From Chloroflexota bacterium (GTDB taxonomy: Bacteria > Chloroflexota > Limnocylindria > Limnocylindrales > CSP1-4): a stretch of 64,000 nucleotides of DNA. Positions 41,058 through 57,683 of this stretch are shown here, one piece after another (positions within the stretch are counted from its first letter, which is position 1; every line of letters begins with the position of its first letter). The stretch covers positions 114,953 through 178,952 of the forward strand of contig PLMA01000042.1 in the NCBI GenBank assembly GCA_003141455.1, given 5' to 3'. The notes under the pieces are model-generated. The model saw nothing but the letters and a program-made list of their open reading frames with translations. It ran no database searches and had not been told where the DNA came from. The translations under genes were made by a program, and so were the position numbers.

Positions 41058-43280
41058 ATGGGCCGATGCACTCAACTCCCCGTTGAGACGACAAACGTCG
41101 AGGCGTACGGGATACAAGTGACCGCCATCGTTCGAAGGACCTCCGCCAGATCGGCCTCCGCCGGTCGCAAGGCCGGCTCGGAGTTCCCGTACATCAACCG
41201 CGAGTTGAGCTCATTGGAGTTCAACCGCCGCGTCTTGTACGAAGCCCGCGACGTGCGCAATCCGGTCCTCGAGCGCGTCAAGTTCCTGGCCATCTTCGCC
41301 AGCAACATGGACGAGTTCTTCCAGATCCGCGTCGCCGGCCTGATGGATCAGGCCGCGGCGAAGGCCGCCCCCAGCACTCCCGGCGAGCACCCGGCGGCCG
41401 AGCAGCTGGCAGCCATTCGGGCCCGCTTCCGCGAGCTGCTCGTGGAGCAGCACGACGCCTTCGACGAGGTCTGCTCGGCGCTGAACGACGCGGGGCTCGA
41501 GATCGTCGACTACGCGGAAGTGCCAGAACACCACGCCGCCCTGCGCCGGCGGTTCATCGACGAGATCTCCCCGGTCCTGACCCCCCTGACCGTCGACCCC
41601 GGCCATCCGTTCCCGTATATCAGCACTCTCAGCCTCTCCGTAGCGATCCGCCTTGAAGACCCGGAGGAGCACGAGGAACGGTTCGCCCGGGTCAAGGTGC
41701 CGCCCGTGCTGCCGCGGTTCCTCGAGATCGAGCCGCACAGGTTCGTCCTGCTGGAGCAGGTCATCGCAGCCAACCTGGACCGGCTCTTCTTCGGCATGAT
41801 GATCCACGAGACGCACTTCTTCCGGATCACGCGCAACGCCGACCTCGAGCTCGAGGAAGACGAAGCCGACGATCTGATGATGGCGATCGAGGAGGAGCTC
41901 CGGCGCAGGCGGTTCGGCGAGGCCGTCCGGCTCGAGGTGGACCAGGCCATGCCGGCCTCGATGCGCCGGATTCTGGAGCATGGCGTGGGCGTCGACCCCG
42001 AGGACTGCTACGAGATCTCCGGCATGCTGGATCACACCGGGCTGTGGCAGATCGCCGCGCAGGACCGGCCCGACCTCGGGCTGCCTCCCTACTCGCCCGT
42101 GGTGCCGCCGCGTCTGGTTCCGCCGGACGAGGACGAGCCGGCCGACGTCTTCGCCGCCGTCCGCTCGGGCGACATCCTGGTGCACCACCCATACGAGAGC
42201 TTCGCGGCCTCGACTCAGAGGTTCATCGCCCAGGCCGCCGGCGATCCCGACGTTCTGTCTATCAAGATGACCCTGTACCGCACCAGCGGCGACTCGCCCA
42301 TCGTGCGAGACCTCATCTCGGCCGCCGAACGAGGCACGGAAGTCGTGGTCCTGGTCGAGATCAAGGCCCGCTTCGACGAACAGGCGAACATCACCTGGGC
42401 GCGCAAGCTCGAGCAGGCCGGCGCGCACGTCGTCTACGGTCTGGTCGGCCTCAAGACGCACTCCAAGACGGCGCTCGTCGTCCGCCGCGAAGGCTCGACG
42501 CTGCGCCTGTACGTCCACATCGGCACGGGCAACTACAACTCCGGCACGGCTCGCTTGTACACGGACTTCGGCCTGCTCTCCTGCCGGCCCGAGCTCGGGG
42601 CCGACGTCAGCGATCTCTTCAACGTCCTGACCGGCCTGTCGCGGCAGCGCGACTTCAGGCGACTGATCGTGGCCCCGATGAACCTGCGCCGCTGGGTTCT
42701 CGAGATGATCCGGCGGGAGGCCGACCACGCCAGGGCCGGCCGGCCAGCCCACATCATTCTCAAGCTGAATTCGCTGGTCGATCCGGCATGCGTTGCCGCT
42801 CTCTACGCCGCCCGGCAGGCCGGCGTCGAGATAGACCTGATCATCCGTGGCATCTGCTCGTTGTGGCCCGGCGTGCCGGACGTCAGCGACGGCATCCGCG
42901 TGCGCTCGGTCGTGGGTCAGTACCTTGAGCACTCGCGCGTCTTCCATTTCGCCAATGACGGCCACCCTGAGTGGTACATCGGCTCGGCCGATCTCATGGA
43001 GCGAAACCTCGACAGGCGCGTCGAGGCCCTGGTGCCGATCGAGGATCCGGAAGCGCAGCGCAGCGTCCAGGCCGTGATCGAAGTCCTGCTCGCCGACGAC
43101 AGGCGCTCCTGGCAGTTGGGCTCTGACGGCGCGTACCGCCGCACCGAGGAACTCACCGGCGTTCCGGGTACCATCGACATCTTCGAGACGCTGCAGAAGC
43201 GGGCCATCGCGTCGTCGACGGCCGTCGCAGCGCCGCGACGGCCGCATGCCGGCATCGGATCGCTCGATCCAAGGGCGTAG
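41058..43280 (+). CDS. ppk: Polyphosphate kinase 1
   Basis: 740 aa. N-terminal motif YINRELSSLEFNRRVL. PLD-like C-terminal domains. The conserved His sits in an LVGLKTHSK-like motif. Confidence 0.9.
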   Translation: MGRCTQLPVETTNVEAYGIQVTAIVRRTSARSASAGRKAGSEFPYINRELSSLEFNRRVLYEARDVRNPVLERVKFLAIFASNMDEFFQIRVAGLMDQAAAKAAPSTPGEHPAAEQLAAIRARFRELLVEQHDAFDEVCSALNDAGLEIVDYAEVPEHHAALRRRFIDEISPVLTPLTVDPGHPFPYISTLSLSVAIRLEDPEEHEERFARVKVPPVLPRFLEIEPHRFVLLEQVIAANLDRLFFGMMIHETHFFRITRNADLELEEDEADDLMMAIEEELRRRRFGEAVRLEVDQAMPASMRRILEHGVGVDPEDCYEISGMLDHTGLWQIAAQDRPDLGLPPYSPVVPPRLVPPDEDEPADVFAAVRSGDILVHHPYESFAASTQRFIAQAAGDPDVLSIKMTLYRTSGDSPIVRDLISAAERGTEVVVLVEIKARFDEQANITWARKLEQAGAHVVYGLVGLKTHSKTALVVRREGSTLRLYVHIGTGNYNSGTARLYTDFGLLSCRPELGADVSDLFNVLTGLSRQRDFRRLIVAPMNLRRWVLEMIRREADHARAGRPAHIILKLNSLVDPACVAALYAARQAGVEIDLIIRGICSLWPGVPDVSDGIRVRSVVGQYLEHSRVFHFANDGHPEWYIGSADLMERNLDRRVEALVPIEDPEAQRSVQAVIEVLLADDRRSWQLGSDGAYRRTEELTGVPGTIDIFETLQKRAIASSTAVAAPRRPHAGIGSLDPRA

Positions 43281-43301
43281 CGGCAAGGCCGGAGGGCATC
43301 G

Positions 43302-45182
43302 GTGGCCACGGAGCGCAAGATCGAGGTCGAGCTCAAGTACCAGGTCACGACCCCTGGCGGCGCTGATCGCTACCTCGTGGCGCCCGAAATCGGCCCGTTC
43401 AAGCCCGTCGGCCAGATCCGGTCGGTCCGGCTCGAGGACGGCTACGTCGACTCGGCCGACTGGGGACTGGCCAGGGCCGGCTTCGCGGCTCGCCTGCGCC
43501 GGACTTCCGCGGGAACGCTCATCAGCGTGAAGGCGCACGCCACGTCCGGCGTCCGGCTGCATCGGCGCGAGGAGATCGAAGGCCCGGCCGACGCGGCCAG
43601 TGCGCCTAGAGACTGGCCCGACTCACAGGCCCGAACGGTCGTCCTCGAACTGTGCGGCGACGAGCCGCTGATCGAGCTTCTCAAGATCCGACAGCTGCGC
43701 AGAGTCCGCCGTCTCGAGGCCGGCGAGTCCAGGGCTGAGCTGAGCCTGGACGAGGTCGAGGTCTTCGGCAACGACACGCTGCTCGAACGTTTCGATGAGC
43801 TGGAGGTGGAACTCAAGAAGGGGGGCGAGGAGCCCCTGGAGGCCCTCGCGGACCTATTCGACCGGGACGAGGCCCTCCGCCCTGTCTCGGGATCCAAGCT
43901 GGACCGAGCGGTCCTGGCGATGAGGACGGCCTTGCCAACCATGCCCGAAGCGGTACGGAGGCGTTGGAGCACGGCTCCGCCGGAGCTGCTCGACGGCAAG
44001 TCGAAAGCCGCCAGACGCAAAGGCCGAGCCGCGAGCGAGGGCGCCACGACCGACGGCCTCGCCAGGCCTCCGCGAGATGCCACCCGGTCCTCGACTGACC
44101 CCGCCGCCACGTCCGAGACGGATCCGGGAACCTCCCGAGTCAGCGAGGCGGAACCTGCGGCCTCGGCGCCGGGCGGGCCAGAGTCCGAGTCGTCCGAGTC
44201 CCAGCCTGAGCCCGCGCCCCAGACGCCCATCCTCGCGCGTCGCCCCGGGCCTCGCACGCTTGGGATCGTGGCGGACGACAGCCTGCCGGAAGCCGCCCGG
44301 AAGGTCCTCCGGTTCCATTTCGCCCGGATGCAGAACCGAGAAGCCGGAGCCCGGAACGGAGACGACGCGGAGGATCTGCACGACATGCGGGTCGCGGTAC
44401 GGCGGATGCGAGCGGCCTGGCGGGTCTTCGACGACGCTTTCAAGTCGAGCCGCACCAAACGCCTGAGGCGGCGTCTGGAGAGCCTCTCCGACAAGCTCGG
44501 CTCGGTGAGAGACCTGGACGTGCTGACGCAAGGGCTGGAGGCCTATCGCCTTGGCCTGGATCCCGAGCAGCAGCCGGGCCTGGACCCGCTGCTGTCGCTC
44601 TGGGCCCGGCAACGTTCGTCTGCGCGAAGACAGCTCATCGAAGAGCTCGACTCGGGCGGGTACTCCGCCTTTGTCCGCGAGATGGAGGAATTCCTCGCGG
44701 CGGGCTCGAACGCGGCCGCCTCCGTGCCCACTCCCACGATCCCCCACCGAGTCAGGGACACGGCACCGTCCCAGATCTGGGCAGCCTACGAGGCGGTCCG
44801 GGCCTATGAGCTGGTCCTGCCCTGGGCCGACATCGAGACCATTCACCAGCTGCGGATCGCCACCAAGTGGCTCCGCTACACGCTGGAGTTCTTCGGCGAG
44901 ACTCTGGGCCCGGACGGCCCGCGCCTCCTGGGCCGTGTGGCCGCCCTCCAGGACTTCCTGGGCGATCTCCACGACGCCGACGTCGCCGCCAAGCTCGCCC
45001 GAGACGTGCTGGTGGCCCGGGCCGGCGAGTTGTCCCGCACGGAGACCGAGGCGATCGGCGCGTACCTCCACTCCCGCGAGCGAGAGCTGGTGCGGCGCCG
45101 TCGTTCGCTCGGCCCGATCTGGCGTGCGGTCAACGGGGCGCCGTTCAGGCGAGCTCTGGGTCGAGCCGCGGCAGCTTTGTAG
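43302..45182 (+). CDS. CYTH (triphosphate tunnel metalloenzyme) and CHAD domain-containing protein
   Basis: The N-terminus has the EVELKY CYTH signature. The C-terminal CHAD domain has DLHDMRVAVRRMRAAWRVF...LGDLHD. A low-complexity linker lies between them. It is directly downstream of ppk1. Confidence 0.75.
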   Translation: MATERKIEVELKYQVTTPGGADRYLVAPEIGPFKPVGQIRSVRLEDGYVDSADWGLARAGFAARLRRTSAGTLISVKAHATSGVRLHRREEIEGPADAASAPRDWPDSQARTVVLELCGDEPLIELLKIRQLRRVRRLEAGESRAELSLDEVEVFGNDTLLERFDELEVELKKGGEEPLEALADLFDRDEALRPVSGSKLDRAVLAMRTALPTMPEAVRRRWSTAPPELLDGKSKAARRKGRAASEGATTDGLARPPRDATRSSTDPAATSETDPGTSRVSEAEPAASAPGGPESESSESQPEPAPQTPILARRPGPRTLGIVADDSLPEAARKVLRFHFARMQNREAGARNGDDAEDLHDMRVAVRRMRAAWRVFDDAFKSSRTKRLRRRLESLSDKLGSVRDLDVLTQGLEAYRLGLDPEQQPGLDPLLSLWARQRSSARRQLIEELDSGGYSAFVREMEEFLAAGSNAAASVPTPTIPHRVRDTAPSQIWAAYEAVRAYELVLPWADIETIHQLRIATKWLRYTLEFFGETLGPDGPRLLGRVAALQDFLGDLHDADVAAKLARDVLVARAGELSRTETEAIGAYLHSRERELVRRRRSLGPIWRAVNGAPFRRALGRAAAAL

Positions 45183-45400
45183 CCGCACCGGAGCGGCGCC
45201 GCACCAGGAACTAGCGGGACCGGCTACCCGCCGCGGGTGGACCGCTTTTCGTGACTGTATGCTTGCCAGCCAAGAGGTACGGCGTCGCCGCGTTCCTCTT
45301 CCGTGGCCTCGTGCCGATACCCGCATGCATCGCTGGATGCGGCGGGCCGCCGAACTCGCCACGGGCATGGACGGCGCACGATCTCCGGGCAGGGTCCAGA

Positions 45401-46084
45401 GTGCAGGCAAGCGACCGATTCGGCGCCCACGTCCATCGCGACGTCTTCGATCAGGAACTGCTCCTGGTCAAGGAAGGCGTCGTGCGCATGGGCGTCCTGG
45501 TCGAAACCGCGATCGACTCCGCGGTCGCCGCTCTCGCGGCCCGTGACACCCGGGCGGCCGCGGACGTAGTCGCCGGCGATCGGGCCATCAACGAGGCTCA
45601 CGCCGAGCTGACAACCCTGATCGTGACCACGATCGCGACGCAATCCCCCGTCGCCACGGATCTTCGGTTCCTGATCGCCCTGGCTCACATCGCCTACGAG
45701 CTCGAGCGGATCGGAGATCACGCCGCCGGCGTGGCGAAGCGGGTCGCCAGGATCGGGTCCATGGCCTCCTCCGCGGATTCGGGGCTCGTGACGATTGGAG
45801 AGCTGACCGGCAGCATGCTCCACGGGGTCCTTCGATCGCTCGTCGATCTCGACGCGACAGAGGCCCGCGCCATGGCCGGACGCGATGACGAGATCGACCG
45901 CCTCTACCACTCCTACTTCGAGCGCGCGCTGGAGCGCATGAGGACCGACCCTGCCTGGGTGGACACCGGGGCGCACCTGCTCTTTGCCGCCAAGGACCTG
46001 GAGCGCATCGGCGACCGAGCCACGAACATCGCCGAGGAAGTGGTTCTCCTGTCCACCGGCGAGGTCGTCGACCTCAACCCCTGA
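45401..46084 (+). CDS. phoU: Phosphate signalling complex protein PhoU
   Basis: The six-helix PhoU repeat is DRAINEAHAEL...[14 protein letters not shown] ... [12 protein letters not shown]...LERIGDRATNIAEEVV. I prefer the GTG at 45401. The longer ORF from 45251 is a likely over-extension. Confidence 0.8.
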   Translation: MQASDRFGAHVHRDVFDQELLLVKEGVVRMGVLVETAIDSAVAALAARDTRAAADVVAGDRAINEAHAELTTLIVTTIATQSPVATDLRFLIALAHIAYELERIGDHAAGVAKRVARIGSMASSADSGLVTIGELTGSMLHGVLRSLVDLDATEARAMAGRDDEIDRLYHSYFERALERMRTDPAWVDTGAHLLFAAKDLERIGDRATNIAEEVVLLSTGEVVDLNP

Positions 46085-46138
46085 CCCGCATCGCACAGTC
46101 CGGCCCGCACAGAGCCGGCGGCGTGCGATCATCGACGT

Positions 46139-46648
46139 GTGAGAACGCAGCCATCGATCCAGTTGCACCTGCTCCGGCACGCCCATGCGGGCGATCCCCT
46201 CAAGTGGACCGGCGCCGACGACGTCCGCCCGCTATCCGAGAGGGGTCGTTGTCAGGCGGAACGGCTGGGCCTCTTCCTGGCGAAGACCGGCTTCGAGCCG
46301 GATCTGATCCTGAGCTCCCCGAAGCTTCGAGCCCTGGAGACGGCCCGGCTAGTGGCGACGCCCCTGGGACTGCCGACCCGGGTCGTCGACGCGCTCGCCG
46401 GTCCGCTGGACATCGACACCCTGGAAGAGTTGCTCCACGCCTCGGGCAACCCAGTGCGGCCATTGCTGGTGGGCCACGACCCGGATTTCAGCGTTCTTGC
46501 GGCCGAGCTCGTGGGCGTGGCGGACCTGGCGATACGCAAAGGGACGCTGGTGCGAATAGACCTCGACCGGCCGATCCGGCCTGGAGCCGGCGTACTTCGG
46601 TGGTTCGTTCCTCCCGACCTGCTCGCCACCCGCGATCACCCCGATTGA
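46139..46648 (+). CDS. Histidine phosphatase family protein (SixA-like phosphohistidine phosphatase)
   Basis: 169 aa. The N-terminal catalytic motif is LHLLRHAHAGD (RHG), and the C-terminal motif is LLVGHDPDFS. Confidence 0.7.
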   Translation: MRTQPSIQLHLLRHAHAGDPLKWTGADDVRPLSERGRCQAERLGLFLAKTGFEPDLILSSPKLRALETARLVATPLGLPTRVVDALAGPLDIDTLEELLHASGNPVRPLLVGHDPDFSVLAAELVGVADLAIRKGTLVRIDLDRPIRPGAGVLRWFVPPDLLATRDHPD

Positions 46649-46745
46649 CGCTCGGCAGGGGCGCGGTATGCTTCGCCGACGTCCCACGTGCGCCGGGATC
46701 CTGAGGCGCGCCGCCGCCGCGAAGGCATCGCGGATTAGGAGACCG

Positions 46746-47174
46746 ATGGCCAAGAAGCGCGATCGAAAGAAGGGCGCGAACGCCGGCAAAGATGGGGCGG
46801 CTGCGGCCGGTCGAGGCTTGCGGCGGCGTCTTCGCCGGCTGGAGAAGATGCTCGCCGTAGCGGCGGCGAAGGAAAGCCGGCGCGTTCGGAAGCTCGAGAA
46901 GGCTCACGTCCGGCGCCAGCAGATCGAGGCCAAGATCGAGACGGCCCGGCTGGCCGCGTCACTTGCCCCTGCCGCTTCGGTCAAGGCTCCGAAGGCTCCG
47001 CCGGTGAGCTCGACCGGCGACCCAGGGCCCAAAGCCGCGCCGGCCAAGACTCCGGCCAAGGCCGTTCGGGCTAAGGCACCGGCCAAGACCGTGCGGGCAA
47101 AGGCCGCGCCGGCCAAGACCGTGCGGGCAAAGGCCGCGCCGGCAACCCCGCCAGAGTCGCCGACAGCGTCCTGA
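46746..47174 (+). CDS. Lys/Ala-rich basic histone-like protein with a tandem AKxVRAKAAP repeat tail
   Basis: MAKKRDRKKGANAGK... with a coiled-coil-like middle and a C-terminal tail PAKAVRAKAPAKTVRAKAAPAKTVRAKAAPA. The ATG at 46746 lies within the longer ORF that begins at 46668. Confidence 0.55.
   Translation: MAKKRDRKKGANAGKDGAAAAGRGLRRRLRRLEKMLAVAAAKESRRVRKLEKAHVRRQQIEAKIETARLAASLAPAASVKAPKAPPVSSTGDPGPKAAPAKTPAKAVRAKAPAKTVRAKAAPAKTVRAKAAPATPPESPTAS
47081..47140 (+). repeat. Exact 30-nt tandem duplication (ggccaagaccgtgcgggcaaaggccgcgcc x2) inside the histone-like gene, with degenerate copies upstream
   Basis: 47081-47110 is identical to 47111-47140. It encodes the repeated peptide AKTVRAKAAP. 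Confidence 0.8.
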
Positions 47175-47238: not shown

Positions 47239-48549
47239 TCACGCAGGCGCCACGGAGTCATCCTCCGGGGCAGGCTCCGTCGCCTCGCCGGCTGCCCCTG
47301 ACGCGGGACCGGCCGCGACTCCCAGCGCCGCCACCGGTACGGCAAAGGAGAAGGTCGAGCCCTCGCCCTCCTCCGACTCGACCCAGATCCGGCCGCCATG
47401 CATCTCGACCACGTGGCGGGCGATCGACAGGCCCAGGCCCGTGCCCCCGCGACCGCGGACCCTGGCCCGGTCCACCTTGTAGAAGCGCTCGAAGATCCTG
47501 GCTATGTCCGCTCGCGGAACGCCGATCCCGGGATCCCGAACCCAAACCACGACTTCGCCGTCGTCTTCGCGAACACCCACGACGATCTCGCCGCCGTTCG
47601 GGCTGAACTTCACGGCGTTGTGGAGCAGGTTTACCAGTACCTGGCCCAGGCGATCCTCGTCGCCGCGAACGGGAGTGACGTGGTCGGGCAGCTCCAGGGC
47701 AAGGCGCAGTCCCTGGCGCTCGGCGAACGGCCGCAGCCTCTCGGTGGTGGCCTGGGCGACTCCGACCATGTCCACATCGTCGAGCAGCAGCGCGGCCGTC
47801 CCGCTTTCGATCTTGGAGAGATCGAGAAGCTCGTTCACCATCTGTATCAAGTGACCGGTCTCCACCTCGATCTTGGCAATGCGGTCGCGGAGGCGCGGAG
47901 ACGCCGACTCGGCGTCGTGTCCGGCAGTCTCGGCCAGCAAGCTGATGGTCGTAAGCGGCGTTCGCAGCTCATGCGACAGGTTGTCGATGAACTCGGCGCG
48001 GATGCGCTGCAGCCGCCGGAGTTCGGAAACGTCTTCGAGGACGAGCCACACGCCCGATACAGGAGACCGACGAGCGCGGACCGTGACCGTCGCCGCCGAG
48101 CTGGACCGCACCGTCAGCTCGCCGTTTGCCGACCCGAACTCCATTGCAGTCCGGGCAACTGCCTCGATCCGGGGGTCGACGAAGGCCTCCAGGGCGGAGC
48201 GACCGACCATCGTCCCCGGCCGACGCTCCAGCATTACGTGTGCGGCGCTGTTCGCGGACTCGACCGTCAGGTCGTCGCGAAGCCGGACCACCCCCGCTGT
48301 GAGCAGCTCGGAGAGGTATCCCGTGTCGTGGATGACCTGCTCGGCGTCCCAGCGGGCGGCATCGGCCGATTCGAGGGCGCCGCGGACACGTCGCTCGACG
48401 TCGTCGGCGTCGCCGGCACCGGTCGCATCGCGCAGACGCTCGATCACTCGGCCACGAGTGATGGCGACCGCGAGAGCCCAGGCCAACAGGATCGCCAGGC
48501 CGACTATGAACAGGACCGAAACGGCGTCCACAGGTCGAGCATGGCACAC
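47239..48549 (-). CDS. Sensor histidine kinase (PhoR-like, with TM and PAS)
   Basis: N-terminal TM helix, a PAS-like region, the H-box LSHELRTPLTTI, and an HATPase (NLLHNAVKFSP, DPGIGV, GGTGLGLSIAR). Confidence 0.8.
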   Translation of the reverse strand: MCHARPVDAVSVLFIVGLAILLAWALAVAITRGRVIERLRDATGAGDADDVERRVRGALESADAARWDAEQVIHDTGYLSELLTAGVVRLRDDLTVESANSAAHVMLERRPGTMVGRSALEAFVDPRIEAVARTAMEFGSANGELTVRSSSAATVTVRARRSPVSGVWLVLEDVSELRRLQRIRAEFIDNLSHELRTPLTTISLLAETAGHDAESASPRLRDRIAKIEVETGHLIQMVNELLDLSKIESGTAALLLDDVDMVGVAQATTERLRPFAERQGLRLALELPDHVTPVRGDEDRLGQVLVNLLHNAVKFSPNGGEIVVGVREDDGEVVVWVRDPGIGVPRADIARIFERFYKVDRARVRGRGGTGLGLSIARHVVEMHGGRIWVESEEGEGSTFSFAVPVAALGVAAGPASGAAGEATEPAPEDDSVAPA

Positions 48550-48632
48550 TGCCGAGAGTTCGGCAGTCTCGGCGCGGCTGGCAGCCCGGGCCGTAGGCCG
48601 CTAACCTAAGCGAGTCAACCCACGAGGTACCG

Positions 48633-49253
48633 GTGCCGTCGTTTCGTCTGATCCCGCGCGAGGAACGCTTCTTCGACCTGTTCGTCGAGGATGCGGCCAA
48701 CGTCCTTGAGGGCGCCCGCCAGCTGGAGACGATGCTGCGCACCTTCGACAACCCGGACAAGGCCGCCAAGAAGATCCGGGAAACCGAGCACAAAGGCGAC
48801 GAGATCAGCCACGACATCGGCCGGCGCCTGGAGCAGAGTTTCGTCACCCCCTTCGACCGCGAGGAGATCCACGCCCTCATAAGCGGCCTCGACGACGTCC
48901 TGGACCTGATCGAGGAAGTGGCCGACACGTTCGTCCTGTACCACATCGATGCGCCTACCAAGACCTCGATCAAGCAGGCTGCGCTCATCGTCCAGTGCTG
49001 CGAGACGCTCCACCAGGCCCTGAGCAACCTGCGCGGCTTCAAGGATCTCGACAAGTTCGTCATCGAGGTCCATCGCCTCGAGAACGAGGGCGACCGATTG
49101 GCCCGTTCGGCAATTGCCGGTCTCTTCGACGACGGCGCCAAGGCCATGGAAGTCCTCAAGTGGAAGGACATCTACAGCTTCCTGGAAGACACCATCGACA
49201 AGTGCGAAGACGTGGCCCAGATGATCGAGCGCATCGTCGTCAAGCACGCCTGA
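48633..49253 (+). CDS. DUF47 family protein (PhoU-like phosphate-transport regulator, Pit accessory protein type)
   Basis: 206 aa. FFDLF...ETEHKGDEISHDIGRRLEQSFVTPFDREEIHALISGLDDVLDLIEE matches the TIGR00153/DUF47 family. Confidence 0.7.
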   Translation: MPSFRLIPREERFFDLFVEDAANVLEGARQLETMLRTFDNPDKAAKKIRETEHKGDEISHDIGRRLEQSFVTPFDREEIHALISGLDDVLDLIEEVADTFVLYHIDAPTKTSIKQAALIVQCCETLHQALSNLRGFKDLDKFVIEVHRLENEGDRLARSAIAGLFDDGAKAMEVLKWKDIYSFLEDTIDKCEDVAQMIERIVVKHA

Positions 49254-49303: not shown

Positions 49304-49339
49304 AACGTTTACGCCGCCCGAACACGCCGTTAACGTGGC
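49304..49339 (+). promoter_or_regulatory. PHO-box-like array of three 11-bp direct-repeat units (GTTTAcgccgc CCGAAcacgcc GTTAAcgtggc), 18 nt upstream of the atypical regulator gene
   Basis: It has the same architecture and near-identical sequence to the array at 50188-50220 (AACGTT ... N19 ... GTTAA with identical spacing). Confidence 0.45.
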
Positions 49340-49356
49340 GCTGCGACATTCGGGCG

Positions 49357-50214
49357 ATGACGCAGGCGCATGACCACGTTCCGCCAGGCGCCGGCACCAA
49401 TCCCCAGCCCGGCAGTTTCGCCTTCTCCCCTCCGGCCGAGGGGTTCACCGGCTGGCTGGCCCTCTCCGACCCGGACGGCCCGATCGATCTGGCGCGCCTC
49501 TTCCCCAATGTCGACGTCCGAGTCGAGACCAGTTCGGCGGCCTTCTCCGAGGCGCTGTCGGTAGTCGAGCCGCGCCTTGTGGTCCTCATCGCGCCACCGG
49601 CAGGACCGGGTGACCTCCAGCGTGTGGCGAGCTGGCTGGGCGGCCACGACGAATCGCGCGCGGTCCTTCTCAGCCCTCACCCGTCCGTGGCGGCCCGACT
49701 GCACGCGCTCGAATTGGGCTTCGACGATGCCGTGGACCTCTCCTCGGACCCCATGGAGGTGGTAGGACGGCTCTCGATCGCGGGGCGCCGCGGACCGGGA
49801 ACGGTGCGCCTCTCCGACGACAGGATTCCCGTGGGCGAGGGCGTAGAGCTGGACCGTCGGGCCCACGCGATCCGCCGCGACGGGCATCTCATATCGCTCC
49901 GGCCCAAGGAGCTGGCCCTGCTCGAGTTCATGGCGATGCGCCCCGGGCGTGCCTTCACCCGCGGGGAACTGCTCAAGCACGTCTGGCACGACGCCGTCGG
50001 CCACGGGCGCATGGTCGACGTCTACGTCTTCTGGCTCCGCTCGAAGATCGAACGCGATCCGGCCGGTCCGGTCCACCTCGTGACCGTGCGTGGCTCGGGC
50101 TACCTGTTCGACCCGCCCAAGACGCCCGCCGCGGATCTGGCCGGTCACGGCGCGGCACCGGGCGGTTGGCCAGCAGGACCGTCGAACGTTAACGAACCGC
50201 CAACACAGCGTTAA
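49357..50214 (+). CDS. OmpR/PhoB-type winged-helix regulator with a degenerate receiver domain that lacks the acidic pocket
   Basis: The C-terminal trans_reg_C domain is ISLRPKELALLEFMAMRPGRAFTRGELLKHVW...VDVYVFWLRSKIE...LVTVRGSGY. The N-terminal receiver-like region is LVVLIAPPAGPG. It has neither the DD pair nor the phospho-acceptor Asp. Confidence 0.65.
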   Translation: MTQAHDHVPPGAGTNPQPGSFAFSPPAEGFTGWLALSDPDGPIDLARLFPNVDVRVETSSAAFSEALSVVEPRLVVLIAPPAGPGDLQRVASWLGGHDESRAVLLSPHPSVAARLHALELGFDDAVDLSSDPMEVVGRLSIAGRRGPGTVRLSDDRIPVGEGVELDRRAHAIRRDGHLISLRPKELALLEFMAMRPGRAFTRGELLKHVWHDAVGHGRMVDVYVFWLRSKIERDPAGPVHLVTVRGSGYLFDPPKTPAADLAGHGAAPGGWPAGPSNVNEPPTQR

Positions 50215-50220
50215 GCGCCC
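50188..50220 (+). promoter_or_regulatory. PHO-box-like array of three 11-bp direct-repeat units (GTTAAcgaacc GCCAAcacagc GTTAAgcgccc), ~75 nt upstream of pstS
   Basis: Exact 11-bp periodicity. It overlaps the stop codon of the regulator gene and is paralogous to the 49304-49339 site. Confidence 0.45.
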
Positions 50221-50293
50221 CCTTCGATCATCCGAGCGGAACCTGGGAGCAGGTTGGACTCATCTAGCCGCCCACCACAGAGGAGACACTAAG

Positions 50294-51262
50294 TTGCTGA
50301 ACGGAACGCGTCGCTTCGGCGCACTGGCCATCGCAGCCGCATTGTTTGCGTCGGCGTGTTCATCGGCCGGCGCCTCGCCCACCCCGGCGCCAGCTGCCAC
50401 TCCGGCCCCGGCCACGCCCACGCCGGCGGCCATGGACACATCCTCGGCGGCCCCGGGCACGCCGGCGGCCACACCGGCGCCGACGGTCAACTGCGTGACC
50501 GGTAGCATCACCACTTCAGGCTCCACCGCCCTGCAGCCCCTCGTCGACGCGGCCGCCAAGCAGTACGCGAAGGCGTGCGCCGGCGCCACGATCACGGTCA
50601 ACGGCGGCGGCTCCGGCACGGGTCTCAGCCAGGTCGCCCAGGGCGCCGTCCAGATCGGCGACTCCGACGTGACGGCCGAAAGCAAGCTCGCCACCCCGGA
50701 CGCGTCCAAGCTCGTCGACCACGTCGTCGCCCGCCAGGGCTGGATCGTGGTCACGAACAAGGACGTGACCGTGACGAACCTGACCACTCAGCAGAACATC
50801 GACATCTGGACCGGCAAGGTCAAGAACTGGAAAGATGTCGGCGGCCCGGATATGCCGATCGTTCTGATCTTCCGCCCGGCCTCGTCCGGCACGCGCGCCA
50901 CCTTCAAGAAGCTGGTTCTCGGCGGCGCCACTGAGGCGACCGGCGGCCAGAACGTGACTCAGGACTCGAATGGTGCCGTCACGACGGCGATCACCAAGAC
51001 CGACGGATCGGTCAGCGTCATCGGCTTCGCCTACTACGACGACCCGGCCAACAAACCCCTCCTCAATGGCCTTCAGCTCGACGGCGTCGACGCCACCGTC
51101 GCGAACATGGCCGGCGGCACCTACAAGCTCGCTGCCGACGGTCACATGTACACCAACGGCCAGCCCTCCGGCCTGACCGCAGCCTTCCTGGCCTACATGA
51201 TGGGCCCGGAGGTCCAGGGCACCCTGATCCCGAGCCTCTCCTACGCTCCGGTCGTCAAGTAG
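50294..51262 (+). CDS. pstS: Phosphate ABC transporter substrate-binding lipoprotein
   Basis: TTG start after an AGGAGA RBS. A lipoprotein-like signal ends in LFASAC. PstS motifs ITTSGSTALQPL and VNGGGSGTG are present. Confidence 0.85.
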   Translation: MLNGTRRFGALAIAAALFASACSSAGASPTPAPAATPAPATPTPAAMDTSSAAPGTPAATPAPTVNCVTGSITTSGSTALQPLVDAAAKQYAKACAGATITVNGGGSGTGLSQVAQGAVQIGDSDVTAESKLATPDASKLVDHVVARQGWIVVTNKDVTVTNLTTQQNIDIWTGKVKNWKDVGGPDMPIVLIFRPASSGTRATFKKLVLGGATEATGGQNVTQDSNGAVTTAITKTDGSVSVIGFAYYDDPANKPLLNGLQLDGVDATVANMAGGTYKLAADGHMYTNGQPSGLTAAFLAYMMGPEVQGTLIPSLSYAPVVK

Positions 51263-51348: not shown

Positions 51349-52332
51349 ATGGCACAACTGACATCCGCCAACCGGATGGCCGGTCTGCGGGCCGCGCCCA
51401 GCTTCGCCGAACGCATCGACCTCCCTCAACGCGTGGTGTTCCTGGCCGCGGCGTCGATGATCGGAATCGTGATCCTGCTGCTGGGCTTCATCACCTGGCA
51501 GGGACTGCAGCTCTTCCTCAAGGATGGCGTGCCGGTCACACAGGTCCTGTCGACCACATGGCAGCCTGACTCGACCAGCCCGGACGTCACTTTCGGCCTC
51601 CTGCCCTTCATCGCCGGCACGGTCTTCGTCACGGCGGTGGCGTTGCTGATCTCGACACCCCTTTCGGTGGGTCTTGCCTTGTTCCTATCCGAAGTGGCGC
51701 CGCGTTGGGCCAGAGCCATCGTCCAGCCGGCCCTCGAGATCTTCGTCGGCATCCCGAGCGTCGTCTGGGGCTGGCTCGGCATCACCATCCTGGTGCCGTT
51801 CCTCAGCGACACCTTCCACCACGACTTCGTCCTGTCCCTCCCGGTCGTGGGCGAGGTGTTCCGTGCTCCGGGCTTCCTCACCGGCTTCTCCTGGCTGGCC
51901 GGCTCGCTCGTCCTCTCGATCATGGTCCTGCCGACAATCACGAGTGTCTCCTTCGATGCCTTCCGGGCCATTCCGCAGGAGCTCCGAACCGGCTCGCTGG
52001 CCCTGGGAACGACGCGCTGGCAGACGATCCGGCACATCCTGATCCCGGCCGCGCTGCCGGGCGTCCTCACGGCGGTGGTGCTCGGCATGACCCGAGCCGC
52101 CGGAGAGGCTCTGGCGGTTCAGATGGTCATCGGCAACTCGCCGATGATGCCCCAGGCGATCAGCCAGCCCGTAACGACGCTGACGTCCCAGATCACGCTC
52201 GACATGGGCAACACGGTCTTCGGTGAGCCCTGGCAGGACGCCCTCTGGACGATGAGCCTGGTCCTCCTGATCATCTCGATCACCTCGGTCGTCCTGGTGA
52301 GGGTCATCAACAAGAGGAGGATGGCCTCGTGA
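51349..52332 (+). CDS. pstC: Phosphate ABC transporter permease PstC
   Basis: 327 aa with 6 TM segments and an EAA-like loop. It sits between pstS and pstA. Confidence 0.85.
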   Translation: MAQLTSANRMAGLRAAPSFAERIDLPQRVVFLAAASMIGIVILLLGFITWQGLQLFLKDGVPVTQVLSTTWQPDSTSPDVTFGLLPFIAGTVFVTAVALLISTPLSVGLALFLSEVAPRWARAIVQPALEIFVGIPSVVWGWLGITILVPFLSDTFHHDFVLSLPVVGEVFRAPGFLTGFSWLAGSLVLSIMVLPTITSVSFDAFRAIPQELRTGSLALGTTRWQTIRHILIPAALPGVLTAVVLGMTRAAGEALAVQMVIGNSPMMPQAISQPVTTLTSQITLDMGNTVFGEPWQDALWTMSLVLLIISITSVVLVRVINKRRMAS

Positions 52333-53285
52333 CCGCGACCGCCTCGTCTGCCGGCAGCGGCTCGCGCGGACCCTCGCCCAGCCTTCGGCACCGCCGCTCC
52401 AGCGGAAGCATCCTGGCCGACCGCGCCGCCACCGTCGTCCTGTGGGGCACGGGCATCTTCGTCCTTCTCCTCCTCGGAGCCATCATCCTCCACTTCGCGG
52501 TGGCGGCCTGGGGAGTCGTCTCGCCGAGCTTCGTCCTCAACGATCCCAGCGACTCGGCTCTCGGCGGCATCATGCCGGTGCTGTGGAACTCCCTCTACAT
52601 GCTCGCGCTGACGATGCTGATCGCTATTCCGGTGGGGCTCCTGGGTGGCATCTACATGTCGGAGTACGCCGGCGACAACCCCATCACAAGCGCGATCCGG
52701 TTCGCCGAGGAGGCGATCAGCTCGGTCCCGTCGATCGTGGTTGGTCTGTTCGGACTGATCCTCTTCGTCGACAACTTCCACATGGGCTTCACGGCTCTCG
52801 GCGGCGCCCTGGCCCTGACGCTTTTCAACCTGCCCCTGATGACCCGTCTCTCCGAGCAGGCTCTCCGGGCGGTTCCGCAGGATGAGCGCAGCGCGAGCCT
52901 GGCTCTGGGCGCGACCAAGTGGCAAACGATCCGCCACGTGGTGGTGCCCCTCGCGATCCCGGGCCTGGTCACCGGGGTGATCCTGACGGCCGGCCGTGTT
53001 TTTGGAGAGGCGGCGGTGCTGCTCTTCACGTCCGGCATCGGGACTCCGGCGCACTACGACTTCGCGAACCTGGACCTGACCAATCCCGCGTCGCCGTGGA
53101 GCCCGTTCCGGCCGGCCACCACCCTGTCGGTCTACATCTGGAAGCTCCAGTCGGAGGGGCTCGGGGCGTTCAAGAACCAGATCATCGACGGCTCGGCCGC
53201 GATTCTCATTTCTATGGTCCTGATCTTCAACCTCGGAGCGCGGCTTGTCGGCCGCCTTCTCACCCGCAGGCTGACTGCCGCATGA
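52329..53285 (+). CDS. pstA: Phosphate ABC transporter permease PstA
   Basis: 318 aa. Its start overlaps the pstC stop. PstA-like TM topology. Confidence 0.85.
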
Positions 53286-54166
53286 ACACCGGAGACGAGA
53301 TGCTTGCTGCCTCTGCCACGTATCAGGAACCCTTGATCCGGCGCGTCGAGGTGAGCGCCTCTCTCGCGGCCGACACGGCCACCGCCGCGGAGCACGAGAT
53401 CAAGATCGCCACGAGCCACGTCTCGATCTCGTACGGCGAGAAGGTCGCCGTTCGAGACGTTTCATTGGAGATCCAGGATCGTTCGATCATGGCCTTGATC
53501 GGGCCGTCGGGCAGCGGCAAGAGCACGTTCCTGCGCTGCTTCAATCGCATGAACGACCTCATCCCGAGCGCTTCCGTTCAGGGTGAGGTGACACTGGACG
53601 GCGAGAACGTGACCGATCCCGATGTCAGCGTCGTGGAGCTGAGACGCCGGGTGGGCATGGTCTTCCAGCGCCCGAATCCGTTTCCGATGTCGATCTACGA
53701 GAACGTCGCCTATGGGCCGAGACGACGGGGCCTGAACGACCGCCGGAAGCTCGAGGAGCTCGTCGAGACGAGCCTGAGGCGAGCGGCCCTCTGGGACGAG
53801 GTCAAGGACGACCTTCGACGCAAGTCCGGCCTGGCTCTCTCCGGCGGCCAGCAACAGCGCCTGTGCATCGCTCGCGTCCTGGCCACCGAGCCGGAGGTCA
53901 TCCTGATGGACGAGCCCGCGTCGGCGCTGGACCCGGTCTCCACCCTCCGCATCGAGGAGCTGATGCGGGAGCTGAGAGAGGCCTACACCATCGTCATCGT
54001 CACCCACAACATGCAGCAGGCTGCCCGCGTAAGCGACGTCACGGCCTTCTTCACGATGGCGGAAGACCGGGCCGGCTACCTGGTCGAGGTCGGACCCACC
54101 GGGCAGATCTTCACGCGGCCGAATGAGCGACTGACAGAGGACTACATCTCAGGGCGGTTCGGATGA
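53282..54166 (+). CDS. pstB: Phosphate ABC transporter ATP-binding protein PstB
   Basis: The ATG overlaps the pstA stop (ATGA). Walker [10 protein letters not shown], signature [13 protein letters not shown], Walker [12 protein letters not shown]. The N-terminal ~30 aa are an extension relative to typical PstB. Confidence 0.9.
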
Positions 54167-54954
54167 ACGCACACGGAGGCGAGGAGTCGACGATGCAGTC
54201 CCTGGAAGAAGCCGCCGGCACGCCGGCCATGGAGCCGACCGCCGCCGGATCCGACGCGGTCGCCGAGGCTGAGGCCGAAGCCGAACGCCATTCGACGCAC
54301 ATTCGAGAGAGCCTCGATGCCGAGATGCGAGACGTCAAGGAGGGCGTCTTGCGCATGGGCAGCCTCGTGGAGGAGCAGATCCTGGCTGCGCACGACGCGA
54401 TCATGAATCGGGATGCAGTCCTAGCGGCGGCCGTTATCGCCTCGGACGGGCGGATCAACGAAGTGCAGAAGGACGTTACCGGGGTGGTAGCGTTGACCAT
54501 CGCGACCCAGGCCCCCGTGGCGAGAGACCTTCGCTTCTTGCTCGCCCTGGACCGGGTCACGTACGAGCTCGAGCGCATCGGCGACCACGCCGGGTCCGTC
54601 GCGAAGCAGGCCCGCAAGCTCGCGGGGGTTACGAGCATGGTGACCTACGACGAGCTGACGCCGATGGCCACTCTGGCTGCGCAGCAGGTCCGGGACGTCG
54701 TACTGGCTCTTATCGACATCGACGAGAACAAAGCCCGGGAAGTCGCCTCCCGCGACGACGAGATCGACCGCCTCTACCACCAGGTCTTCGACGACGTTCT
54801 GGCGGAGATGCGGACCGATCCGGCCAAGGTGGACCCCGGGACCCGGATCCTCTTCGCCGCCCACTACCTCGAGCGTATCGGCGACCGTGTCACCAACATC
54901 GCCGAGGACGTGGTCTTCCTCGCGACGGGTGAGGTCGAAGACCTGAACCCCTAG
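54163..54954 (+). CDS. phoU: Phosphate signalling complex protein PhoU (second copy, pst-linked)
   Basis: Its start overlaps the pstB stop. The PhoU repeats are [14 protein letters not shown] ... [12 protein letters not shown] ... [16 protein letters not shown], preceded by an acidic, Ala-rich N-terminal extension. Confidence 0.85.
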
Positions 54955-55165
54955 AGGCCAATCCTCCACGAACGGAAAGCTTGGACGGCGGATCTGGTCG
55001 GAGGCTTGACTCCTCTCGACAAGACACGGGTGGTCGGAACGCCCGGTCCCGCAGACTGCTACGTACCGACGAGGGCAGGCTGGCGCGGCAGCTCGGTGGT
55101 ATACATGATCCATGGGACCTTCTGGAGTTGCGCGCGCAGGAGTAGTCGGGGCGAAGGCGCGGTCG

Positions 55166-56422
55166 ATGAAGTCCGCCACCCTCCTCTTGTCCCTGCTAGT
55201 CGCCGCCTGCGGGACACAGCCGGCATCGCCGCCTGCGCCTCCATCGACGGCGCTGCCTGCGACGGCGTCGCCTCGATCTCTTGGCCCGTCGCCGAGTCTG
55301 AGCCCGAGCCGCCTACTCGCGCCGGGCACTCAGTGTGGTGCGACGGTCGCGTTTGGCGGTCAAATTGTCGCCCCTCCTCTGCCCAGTTCGACCGGCCGTG
55401 GGAATCCGCCGACGTGGTCGGCACAAGCCGCAGCCTTCGCCATCGAGAGTGTCGCTGCTTCCCCCGACGGTCAGTTGTTGGCAATTGCCGGAGCCTCGGA
55501 CAGTAGCCACACTGCCCAGCTGTGGGCGGCGGACGGATCGAAGCTGGCGACACTCGCTGACGGCGGTGCGGTGGTCACATGCCTGGCCTGGTCGCCCGAT
55601 GGCGCGCTCCTTGCGGGGGCCTCTCGGGCCGGGGACGTGAGGCTCTGGGACCGGCACGGGCAGCTGGTCCGAATACTGCACGGGACGGACCCGGTCTTCA
55701 GCCTTGCTTGGTCGCCTGACGGCGCCGTACTGGCTACGGGAGCCATCCATTTCCCAGCTCCGACCGCGACCGGCCTGGCCCCCCTGCCGGGCGTGGTCCG
55801 GCTGTGGGGACGGGACGGCAGTCTCAATCGCACTCTCGGGACAGAGTCTACTGGTGGCAAGTTCCTCAATCTCGCGTGGTCGCCCGACGGGTCGATGCTC
55901 GCGGCTGGCGCCGGCGACTACAACGTCTGGCGAGCCGACGGGACACAGGTCGGCGTCCTGCGGACGGGCGGAACCCCGGCCTGGGCGATGGTCTGGTCGC
56001 CAGATGGCCGCGCACTCGCCATTGGCGACGAGAGTGGCGTCCTGCAGATCGTCACGCCCGGTGGCACGATGCAGAGCGTCAGCTCCTTCGAGGGCGACGT
56101 CAACGCAGTCAGCTACTCGCCAGACGGCGCCTCTCTGGCCGTTGGGCATGACTCGATAGTGAGCGTCGTCAAGGCTACTGACGGACGAACCGTCCTTTGG
56201 TCAGTGGCCGCCGTCGCGGCCTACACCATCTGGTCGATCGACGGACGCAAACTGCTGATCTCGGCAGCCGACGGCCTCGCCCTGGTCGGCGCGGGCGGCG
56301 CGCCCTCTTCCACACTGACTGGCTGCCCGGGCGACGTCAGCGCCTTCTCCTGGGATGGAGCGGTCGTGGTCGCCGCTACCGATACTGGCTGGCTCTGTAG
56401 CTGGCGCTCACCCGGTCCGTGA
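55166..56422 (+). CDS. WD40/PD40-like beta-propeller repeat lipoprotein
   Basis: The signal peptide MKSATLLLSLLVAACG has a lipobox. It is followed by ~7 repeats of LAWSPDG-type motifs (LAWSPDGALLAG, LAWSPDGAVLAT, LAWSPDGSMLAA, MVWSPDGRALAI, VSYSPDGASLAV). Confidence 0.75.
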   Translation: MKSATLLLSLLVAACGTQPASPPAPPSTALPATASPRSLGPSPSLSPSRLLAPGTQCGATVAFGGQIVAPPLPSSTGRGNPPTWSAQAAAFAIESVAASPDGQLLAIAGASDSSHTAQLWAADGSKLATLADGGAVVTCLAWSPDGALLAGASRAGDVRLWDRHGQLVRILHGTDPVFSLAWSPDGAVLATGAIHFPAPTATGLAPLPGVVRLWGRDGSLNRTLGTESTGGKFLNLAWSPDGSMLAAGAGDYNVWRADGTQVGVLRTGGTPAWAMVWSPDGRALAIGDESGVLQIVTPGGTMQSVSSFEGDVNAVSYSPDGASLAVGHDSIVSVVKATDGRTVLWSVAAVAAYTIWSIDGRKLLISAADGLALVGAGGAPSSTLTGCPGDVSAFSWDGAVVVAATDTGWLCSWRSPGP

Positions 56423-56541
56423 ACGCACCCAGAACAGCTCCAGCACATAGCATCCGTGCCCGCCAGTTCTCATGACACAGTCCAGCTATCGACGCGGCTG
56501 GGAGGTTTCGGCGAGGTCAGCCGGCACGCTCCGTCAACCTG

Positions 56542-56579
56542 GCCACGGATGTTCGTACCTTCACCCGTATAGTGTCGGG
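56542..56579 (+). repeat. Direct repeat, copy A (ttcgtaccttcacccgtatagtgtcgg...gactcctc), immediately 3' of the CDF transporter gene
   Basis: A 27-nt block is identical to 57585-57611, plus a conserved gactcctc 3 nt later. Confidence 0.8.
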
Positions 56580-56611
56580 CCGACTCCTCAGCGACCTCCG
56601 ACCATGCCCCC

Positions 56612-57544
56612 TCAACTGTGCGCTGCGCCTTCGAGCCTTCGCCGATCGCTGGACTCCAGCTGAAATGTCGAGTGCTCGATGTCGAAGTGTTCAGACAGGC
56701 ATCCGCAGAGGAATTGGAGCACGGCGGCGCCATCCGCGTCCGACTTGAGGACCACGTGTGCCGAGAGGACATTCACGCCTGACGTAATCGTCCAGGCGTG
56801 GAGGTCGTGGACATCGGCGACGCCGGAAGCGTCGAGGATGTGGGCACGAACCTCATCCATGTTCACGCCCTTTGGTGTCGCCTCTAGAAGCACGTCTGTG
56901 GCGTCGCGCAGCAGGCCCCAGACGCGCGGCAGGATCAGCAGGGCGATGGCCACCGAGGCGACTGCATCGGCCGGGGTCCAGCCGGTCAGCGAGATGGCCA
57001 CGGCAGCAACGATGACCGCGGCCGATCCGCCGAGGTCACCCATGACTTCGAGGTAGGCGGCGCGCATGTTGAGGCTGTGGGCCTGAGCGTCGCGCAGCAT
57101 CCACATCGAGGCAGCGTTGATCAGGAGGCCAACAAGGGCCACGCCGAGCATGAGTCCGGAGGCGACTTGAGGCGGTTCCGAGAACCGACGCCAGGCTTCA
57201 AAGAGGATGAAGCCCGCCACTCCAAAGAGCAGCACAGCATTGGCCACAGCCGCGAGGATTTCGAGGCGGAGGTAACCGTAGGTCCGCCCGGTGCTCGCTG
57301 GACGTGTCCCGATCCAGATTGCCAACAAGGCGAGGCTGATACCCGCCGCGTCAGTGAAGACGTGAGCGGCATCGGCCAGAAGCGCGAGGCTGTTGGAGGC
57401 CAGGCCGCCCACGACCTCGATTGCTAGGATTGCGAGCGACAGGCCGAGGACCGCGAGCAGGCGCCTTACGTTGGCCCGCGCGGTGGAATGAGGCATGCAC
57501 CCCAGTCTATCGGGTCGGCTCCGGGGAGTCGGACGCGACCACAC
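56612..57544 (-). CDS. Cation diffusion facilitator family transporter (CzcD-like)
   Basis: Six TM helices with the CDF signature, HxxxD-type motifs (AHVFTDAAGISLAL) and a C-terminal cytoplasmic domain. The start is probably an internal ATG (MPHSTARANV...). Confidence 0.85.
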   Translation of the reverse strand: MWSRPTPRSRPDRLGCMPHSTARANVRRLLAVLGLSLAILAIEVVGGLASNSLALLADAAHVFTDAAGISLALLAIWIGTRPASTGRTYGYLRLEILAAVANAVLLFGVAGFILFEAWRRFSEPPQVASGLMLGVALVGLLINAASMWMLRDAQAHSLNMRAAYLEVMGDLGGSAAVIVAAVAISLTGWTPADAVASVAIALLILPRVWGLLRDATDVLLEATPKGVNMDEVRAHILDASGVADVHDLHAWTITSGVNVLSAHVVLKSDADGAAVLQFLCGCLSEHFDIEHSTFQLESSDRRRLEGAAHS

Positions 57545-57622: not shown

Positions 57623-57683
57623 CTCGCCCAGACCATAGCCATTCGGGCGGGCACCAAGATCGCCGGCGTTGGAGCCTCGCCGG

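Follow-up and report, generated by a model that had tools for sequence, protein, structure and literature searches.

We analysed a 64,000-nucleotide stretch (hereafter the window) of contig PLMA01000042.1, assembly GCA_003141455.1, from a Chloroflexota bacterium of the class Limnocylindria. This is an uncultured class, represented here by metagenome-assembled genomes from fen, peat and soil, habitats in which phosphorus is commonly limiting. Homologues of the proteins encoded in the window also point to this class. The window has a GC content of 68% and carries a pstSCAB-phoU operon headed by the gene of an OmpR/PhoB-family regulator without a phospho-acceptor Asp, which we call REG. The REG gene and pstS are each preceded by an array of three 11-bp-phased GTTAAC-type units (array 1 and array 2, respectively), and the same phosphate island also contains a PhoR-like histidine kinase and a canonical OmpR-family response regulator, here RR2. 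All features are listed in Table 1.

Two three-unit arrays precede REG and pstS

A sequence-only reading of this DNA had proposed that PHO-box-like 3x11-bp arrays flank the regulator ahead of pstSCAB-phoU, and this was borne out by their coordinates, by a position weight matrix (PWM) and by their conservation. The sequence GTTAA occurs four times on the plus strand of the window, three of them inside the arrays, and CGTTAACG is found twice, once in each array. When the pattern AACGTTWACG-N7-AACAC-N2-CGTTAA was searched with 3 mismatches permitted, the window gave 2 matches, compared to 0.00 expected from 100 shuffles. With the PWM, which was built from 69 sites, array 2 scored 52.5 bits and array 1 scored 43.1 bits, and no third site in the 64-kb window reached the 8-bit cutoff. 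The arrays had also been called near-identical: 21 conserved core positions, counting one W degeneracy, are indeed common to both within a 30-bp span, but the wording was generous. The consensus of array 1 in the family is GTTCACGnnnn nGGAACACngc GTTAACAnnnn.

Array 2 overlaps the last nine codons of REG (NVNEPPTQR*), and the TAA stop codon lies within its third unit. Note that the array is equally conserved in seven related loci (L003, L004, L019, L023, L028, L030 and L034 in our numbering) in which the REG open reading frame (ORF) ends before it. Since the array is kept where it is non-coding, the constraint acts on the DNA, and the conserved peptide NVNEPPTxR is a by-product. Selection on the C-terminal peptide NVNEPPTQR was rejected on the same ground.

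Table 1. Positions of the arrays, promoter elements, protein domains and genes, numbered along the window unless a locus is named
Feature	Position	Strand	Remarks
Array 1, Pho box of the REG promoter	49307-49339	+	GTTTACGCCGC CCGAACACGCC GTTAACGTGGC; 17 nt before ATG 49357
-10-like hexamer GACATT, REG promoter	49345-49350	+	5 nt after array 1, 6 nt before ATG
REG, Asp-less OmpR/PhoB-family regulator, 285 aa	49357-50214	+	Pfam Trans_reg_C only
Pseudo-receiver domain of REG, residues 32-145	49450-49791	+	(beta-alpha)5 fold in the AlphaFold2 (AF2) model
Winged-helix DNA-binding domain of REG, residues 156-254	49822-50118	+	Recognition helix 217-231 = GRMVDVYVFWLRSKIE
Array 2, Pho box of the pstS promoter	50188-50220	+	GTTAACGAACC GCCAACACAGC GTTAAGCGCCC; 73 nt before pstS TTG 50294
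-10-like hexamer GATCAT, pstS promoter	50226-50231	+	5 nt after array 2
Conserved element GGAACCTGGGAGCAGGTTGG	50238-50257	+	20 nt, just after the -10 hexamer; about +1 to +20 of the predicted pstS transcript
pstS	50294-51262	+	TTG start; Pfam/NCBIfam
pstC	51349-52332	+	Pfam/NCBIfam
pstA	52329-53285	+	Pfam/NCBIfam
pstB	about 53282-54166	+	Pfam/NCBIfam; candidate start
phoU (pst operon)	54163-54954	+	Pfam/NCBIfam
PhoR/PnpS/WalK-like histidine kinase	47239-48549	-	Intact H-box and ATPase domain; divergent from DUF47
DUF47 (PhoU_div)	48633-49253	+	Directly upstream of REG; own TAnCCT-type -10 hexamer, no array
RR2, canonical RegX3/MtrA-like OmpR-family response regulator	59037-59735	-	Convergent with Pit, downstream of gltX
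ppk1	41058-43280	+	
CYTH-CHAD	43302-45182	+	
phoU (second PhoU)	45251-46084	+	
SixA-like His_Phos_1	46139-46648	+	
WD40 protein	55112-56422	+	
Cation-efflux (CDF) protein	56612-57544	-	
Pit	57669-58997	+	
33-bp palindromic-core array, Phosphodiest/PhnW-like	L042 1491-1523		Also in L043, L045, L046, L049, L051-L054, L059, L060, L063

The arrays are conserved at fixed positions and take the place of a -35 element

We compared the window with 34 related Limnocylindria genome loci. All of these were retrieved with the REG protein, so they say nothing on how universal REG is. Both arrays were found at fixed positions in all 34, and their flanks were not conserved. Array 1 kept a constant distance to the ATG (35/35 loci), and array 2 was present in every related locus that reaches that far. 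Moreover, the -10-like hexamer that follows each array was equally regular: A at position 2 and T at position 6 were seen in 35/35 distinct sites of array 1, where the background is 2.5%, and likewise in 35/35 distinct sites of array 2. Over all box types, a hexamer with A2 and T6 lay exactly 5 nt past the 33-nt array in 112 of the 114 distinct sites, compared to the same 2.5% background.

A scan of the region detected no sigma-70 consensus -35/-10 promoter, which is what promoters that depend on an activator would show. REG has no Shine-Dalgarno sequence and its -10 hexamer lies 6 nt before the ATG; from this, the REG mRNA is predicted to be leaderless. The same leaderless-type layout occurs in three distant members of the family (L035, L036 and L041).

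Just after the -10 hexamer of the pstS promoter lies the other conserved element of this region, which holds the inverted repeat AACCTG/CAGGTT. Its sequence is conserved across the Limnocylindria loci and is absent in the distant family members. No Rfam match was obtained in the region that includes it, and the pstS leader did not fold better than shuffled sequence (z = 0.08); an RNA-based explanation of the region was rejected on these two results. The element could serve as the initial transcribed region, stabilise the 5' end or be a site for another protein.

In five of the relatives (L003, L004, L007, L028 and L032) the pstS, pstC and pstA genes are of a divergent type, with about 32% identity in PstC and PstA, and REG and array 2 are kept. 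This suggests that in those five the transporter was swapped behind a fixed promoter module.

The same arrays precede phosphorus-scavenging genes in relatives

A scan for further arrays, for example at the phoU, ppk and pit promoters, had been suggested. Within the window, ppk1, CHAD, phoU, DUF47, Pit, the kinase and RR2 all proved to have no array upstream, but additional box types do exist at other promoters in relatives, where the three-unit 11-bp spacing was also seen at four further promoter types. A metagenome scan with a third array variant, taken from L008, L014 and L019, added 22 more loci. The 43-aa N-terminus of the third target, used as a query for homologues, recovered nothing beyond a 54-aa fragment; the array-pattern scan of metagenomes identified the gene instead.

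One of the boxes in relatives lies between a Phosphodiest-family gene and a divergent gene for a PhnW-like protein of about 550 aa, which has a 2-aminoethylphosphonate aminotransferase domain. This shared array has a -10-like hexamer 5 nt beyond it on both sides, and by its layout looks like a bidirectional Pho box. Another box is placed before either an SBP_bac_6 ABC transporter operon that resembles phnSTUV or a CBS-GGDEF gene. As a separate observation, the PhnW-like protein (L042 1594-3237 and its equivalents) carries a conserved N-terminal extension of about 160 aa (MPYADTVATVRSWAEDR...), for which no Pfam match was obtained.

The arrays thus combine three 11-bp units, a TTAAC core, a position about 9-10 bp before the -10 hexamer and phosphorus-scavenging genes downstream, which is the published layout of Pho boxes. 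Repeat phasing, a fixed place before the -10 that stands in for the -35, and phosphorus-acquisition targets were all found. On this comparison of sequences, we interpret the arrays with high confidence as the Pho boxes of this lineage, placed as PhoB/SphR-type class II activator sites.

REG combines a pseudo-receiver with a PhoB-like winged helix

The winged helix that had been ascribed to the regulator was readily recognised. REG matched PF00486 (Trans_reg_C) over residues 178-251 with 72.3 bits, compared to a cutoff of 26.2, and a profile search of the PDB with the REG family gave RegX3 and MtrA as the best solved relatives. By contrast with its C-terminal half, the N-terminal half escaped the family models. 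No Response_reg (PF00072) match was obtained in REG at E <= 0.01, none was present among the best 120 REG homologues listed, and more than 100 of the homologues among those listed carry PF00486 only. REG scored 72.4 bits with the PhoB equivalog TIGR02154 (cutoff 296.2) and 50.1 bits with PRK10161 (cutoff 471), and the PhoB-type match spans residues 103-252 only. The NCBIfam response-regulator models match REG mostly from residue 100 on, with scores far under their cutoffs.

To see the fold, we used an AF2 model computed on an alignment of 54 sequences that includes distant members; an earlier model from 18 close homologues, with a predicted local distance difference test (pLDDT) of 57, was not used. 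The model has a mean pLDDT of 85.5, with values above 93 in both domains (residues 31-140 for the receiver part), and a C-terminal tail predicted to be disordered. Its N-terminal elements follow the order b1-a1-b2-a2-b3-a3-b4-a4-b5-a5 over residues 33-144, and the winged helix spans residues 156-251. Foldseek aligned about 230 columns to full-length KdpE, RpaA, MtrA, RegX3, PhoP and PrrA, and the DNA-binding domain superposed on solved ones with a root-mean-square deviation of 1.4-2.9 Å.

It had been claimed that the receiver lacks both the acidic pocket and the phospho-acceptor Asp. The loss of the Asp, and of the Lys, holds family-wide, but the acidic pocket is partly kept. Thus, the canonical acidic pair after beta1 corresponds to S37-D38-P39-D40 in REG; at the end of beta3, where the phospho-acceptor Asp is expected, REG has I78-A79-P80-P81; the Thr/Ser at the end of beta4 is kept as S106; and the Lys after beta5 is replaced by L128, which lies within GFDDAVDLSSDP and is aligned to GADDYVTKPF of RR2. 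Beta3 (residues 74-78, LVVLI) runs into APPAG, and the family conserves the motif LVVLIAPPAG. Across the wide family P80 does not vary and P81 hardly does; within the close family A82 does not vary either. In the alignment to the REG family profile, the acceptor 'LD' of MtrA is an insertion, which places a 2-residue deletion in the REG family exactly at the phospho-acceptor. REG has the structure that defines a pseudo-receiver or atypical response regulator, and falls outside the canonical response-regulator and PhoB-equivalog models. With the acceptor Asp deleted and the Lys replaced, the N-terminal domain is, as judged from the model and the alignments, one that keeps the receiver shape and cannot accept a phosphoryl group.

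Conservation within the close family was uneven. Invariant residues make up 28% of beta1-alpha3 (residues 32-100), 64% of alpha4-beta5-alpha5 (101-144) and 51% of the DNA-binding domain (156-254), and the recognition helix and the wing do not vary within the family. Such a distribution fits a protein that would use both its dimer face, alpha4-beta5-alpha5, and its reading of DNA.

Distant REG relatives are also found directly upstream of pstS

A phmmer search with REG residues 28-153 recovered 61 relatives among 1.84 billion representatives, and no canonical receivers. The distant relatives, which are 29-47% identical and about 248 aa long, have the PPA motif and no Asp. Each of those examined is located immediately upstream of pstS, including in lineages without an adjacent kinase. 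GTTAAC-type arrays of the same geometry were found in L035, L036, L037 and L041. In L041 the gene abuts pstS, and thus the REG homologue and pstS are probably co-transcribed. In L039 and L040, which represent a single lineage and have the helix VHICKLR, no recognisable arrays were seen.

Organisation of the phosphate island

The kinase, DUF47 and SixA-like neighbours named in the sequence-only reading, and the downstream pstSCAB-phoU genes, were confirmed by Pfam and NCBIfam matches. The best model scores of the kinase were PnpS, WalK and PhoR. No response regulator gene adjoins it, and the kinase and RR2 are unlinked. The DUF47-REG synteny and the position of the kinase are kept across the Limnocylindria loci. 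The DUF47 promoter region (48550-48632) has a conserved GCTAaCCTAAG element of the TAnCCT -10 type and a GGAGG Shine-Dalgarno sequence; in contrast to it, the box-dependent promoters have weak -10 hexamers and the REG promoter yields the predicted leaderless transcript.

Upstream of the kinase, ppk1, CYTH-CHAD, the second PhoU and the SixA-like gene (41058-46648) form a co-directional polyphosphate/phosphate cluster, which adjoins the kinase in most loci and is not preceded by a Pho box. In the gap that separates the SixA-like gene from the kinase, an ORF on the plus strand (46668-47174) encodes a Lys/Arg/Ala-rich product with AKTVRAKAAPA-type repeats and a coiled-coil-like middle. This product was not matched by any model of Pfam or NCBIfam, and related loci have a gap of comparable size here. 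On the other side of the operon, the WD40 and CDF genes (55112-57544) separate phoU from Pit in the window. In relatives, the genes that come straight after phoU are Pit or the phosphonate and phosphodiesterase genes, and the island content is therefore variable there.

Which protein reads the boxes

Here we infer the box binder, the sign of the regulation and the input signal. RR2 is the closest paralogue of REG in the window, its recognition helix is RTVDVHIHWLRAQIE, and the two are, from their sequences, paralogues that probably read the same boxes. The related locus L042 has the same convergent Pit-RR2 arrangement, with an RR2 that is 88% identical. The position that is Arg201 in PhoB is Trp in RR2 (VHIHWLR), in the consensus of the wider family (VHVRWLR) and in REG (VYVFWLR); the five closest solved regulators have Arg there. 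The response regulator at 20407 was also considered as a binder and was rejected: it has a GAF kinase of its own as partner and shares only 25% identity with REG.

We tentatively favour a circuit in which the kinase and RR2 provide the signal input and REG co-occupies the boxes independently of phosphorylation, with positive feedback. The PhoR-like kinase and RR2 would sense phosphate limitation, PhoU would act as the brake, and phosphorylated RR2 (RR2~P) would fire the boxes, including the one ahead of REG. REG would then occupy the same boxes as a phosphorylation-independent dimer or oligomer, activate its own promoter and reinforce pst and phn expression. Besides the box at its own promoter and the long-lasting linkage to pstS, the invariant recognition helix and wing speak for REG as a binder, as does the precedent of ChxR, HP1043 and GlnR. 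The phosphorylation-independent Pho circuit proposed from the sequence finds only partial support: the Asp-less REG does lie beside Pho boxes, but the kinase and RR2 are present in the island, and one locus keeps its boxes without REG.

That locus belongs with several points that weigh against the favoured circuit and support a rival one, in which RR2~P with its kinase is the sole reader of the boxes and REG is a Pho-induced accessory. In the metagenomic contig L061 (11220-11460, minus strand), an internal deletion removes array 1 and most of REG. The DUF47 stop codon is followed by an inverted repeat with a 10-bp stem and then by the REG remnant; about the last 31 REG codons (..GGFFDPPK..NVNKGPTPR*), array 2 and pstS are retained, and phn-type boxes occur on the same contig. 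The island has conserved both RR2 and a PhoR-like kinase that is intact, and such a kinase must have a phospho-accepting partner. The DNA-binding domain of RR2 is closest to that of RegX3, the mycobacterial Pho regulator, and with this domain and the recognition-helix Trp that it shares with the REG family, RR2 alone could account for the boxes, which themselves resemble canonical SphR/PhoB-type sites. In addition, the helix variants YVFW, HVRW, HVFM and HVFN of the wider family all accompany GTTAAC-type cores, so no protein-DNA covariation points to REG. As an accessory, REG could be a competitor or anti-activator at the boxes, a heterodimerising 'poison' partner acting via alpha4-beta5-alpha5, or a regulator of other targets. 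We regard RR2 as sole reader as possible, if somewhat doubtful, for three reasons. REG is the only regulator gene in the window with a box at its own promoter, and neither the kinase/DUF47 promoter region nor the surroundings of RR2 has one. The linkage of REG to pstS extends down to 29-47% identity, without an adjacent kinase. Finally, the DNA-binding domain of REG is under strong purifying selection, and the only other conserved candidate operator near REG is the element at 50238-50257, which is lineage-specific.

The distant lineages, in which the core module is REG-pstSCAB-phoU without an adjacent kinase, bring in the opposite possibility, that REG is the sole, kinase-independent master activator, gated by protein contact (sequestration by PhoU/PstB or DUF47 at high phosphate), and that the kinase and RR2 serve another function. 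The DUF47-REG synteny throughout the Limnocylindria and the predicted autoregulation of REG from the box at its own promoter are consistent with it, and control of pseudo-receivers by partner proteins has precedents (PMC12632262). The conserved position of the kinase in the island argues for a role of the kinase, however, and the L061 deletion suggests that REG is dispensable, at least for some time; we consider this explanation unlikely. We would give no better prospects to REG being, in Limnocylindria and related lineages, a phosphate-responsive master activator of pst and phn through PhoU/PstB or DUF47 contact that bypasses phosphotransfer, or else an obligate heterodimer with RR2. Phosphorylation of REG on a different acidic residue close to the former pocket (D38 or D40, for example) is highly improbable: D38 hardly varies in the close family and Ser106 is kept, but the wider family conserves neither D38 nor D40, the acceptor position is deleted, the Lys is replaced, and the domain matches no receiver model or canonical receiver sequence. 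That the arrays are non-regulatory, arising by chance or, for array 2, from a constraint on the peptide, could be suggested by the location of array 2 inside coding sequence in the window. This is effectively refuted by the expectation of 0 sites by chance, by the equal conservation of array 2 where the ORF stops upstream, by the same geometry at four further promoters and by the predicted disorder of the C-terminal tail.

Implications

Our results indicate a real module of a broadly known kind: as far as sequences and the structural model tell, a Pho circuit in which the pst operon is headed by a PhoB-family paralogue that is catalytically dead and driven by a Pho box. In the literature searched, the coverage of which was limited, we came across no previous account of a pst-linked regulator without the Asp or of Pho boxes in Limnocylindria. 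If the circuit that we favour is true, a phosphorylation-independent layer (feedback, memory or damping) would be added to the textbook two-component Pho paradigm, and REG would be a case of a pseudo-receiver with a clear physiological input and target sites. If instead REG is controlled by contact with other proteins, it would represent a signalling route from transporter to transcription factor that bypasses phosphotransfer. The analysis also provides a candidate Pho-box model and a first predicted regulon for the Limnocylindria, comprising pst, a phosphonate transaminase, a phosphodiesterase, a phosphonate-type ABC transporter and a CBS-GGDEF protein. The model could be used to read phosphorus stress in metatranscriptomes. 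Array 2, in turn, is a clean example of a promoter element inside the 3' codons of the upstream gene.

Comparison with known systems

The arrays resemble the SphR and PhoB boxes in being tandem direct repeats phased at 11 bp, with nearly the same TTAAC core, that replace the -35 element before pst and phosphonate genes. The PhoP repeat of B. subtilis, TT(A/T/C)ACA, is also close to the array units. The Pho box of Synechocystis consists of at least 3 tandem 8-bp CTTAACCT repeats with 3-bp linkers, and in E. coli the distance from the Pho boxes to the -10 hexamer downstream is 10 bp (PMC1906773). Unlike those boxes, the core described here is the palindrome GTTAAC in a genome of 68% GC, the middle unit is degenerate (GGAACAC or CCAACAC), and in relatives one array serves two divergent promoters. 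Moreover, a pseudo-receiver paralogue lies behind one of the boxes, and the cognate binder is represented by candidates only.

Several regulators of the OmpR family work without phosphorylation. ChxR of Chlamydia trachomatis, an OmpR/PhoB-family protein like REG, activates its own promoter. Together with HP1043 and GlnR, it belongs to the atypical OmpR-family regulators that dimerise and bind DNA without phosphorylation (PMC12632262), and as a phosphorylation-free constitutive homodimer it binds direct repeats (PMC3960148; PMC12632262). Unlike REG, ChxR is still recognised as a receiver and has no link to phosphate genes; REG, for its part, has the 2-residue deletion at the acceptor site, escapes PF00072 and sits in a Pho regulon with a canonical paralogue. 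HP1043 (HsrA) of Helicobacter pylori and GlnR of actinomycetes, both orphan regulators of the OmpR family, have phosphorylation sites that are degenerate or unused and form alpha4-beta5-alpha5 dimers, and the Foldseek matches of REG include 2hqr and 8hih, which we compare under these two. HP1043 binds inverted hexamers (PMC8345958). In contrast to REG, GlnR still has the Asp, which helps to stabilise its dimer, and the genes of HP1043 and GlnR are neither beside pst nor driven by Pho boxes.

Pairs of regulators offer a second comparison. In Streptomyces, BldM and WhiI form a heterodimer. BldM is mentioned in the literature on atypical regulators (PMC12632262), and in C. difficile the canonical response regulator of the CmrR/CmrT pair works with a partner that has no working phosphorylation pocket (PMC12548384). 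Both pairs differ from the present case in controlling morphology or development instead of phosphate acquisition, and the REG-RR2 pairing is hypothetical. Finally, there are parallels with SenX3-RegX3 of Mycobacterium and with PhoR-PhoB: among solved structures, RegX3 is the nearest relative of REG as well as of RR2, and the pst operon is among the targets. The Limnocylindria locus departs from these systems in that REG has no acceptor Asp, and in that the kinase and the canonical regulator are unlinked, neither of them with a box.

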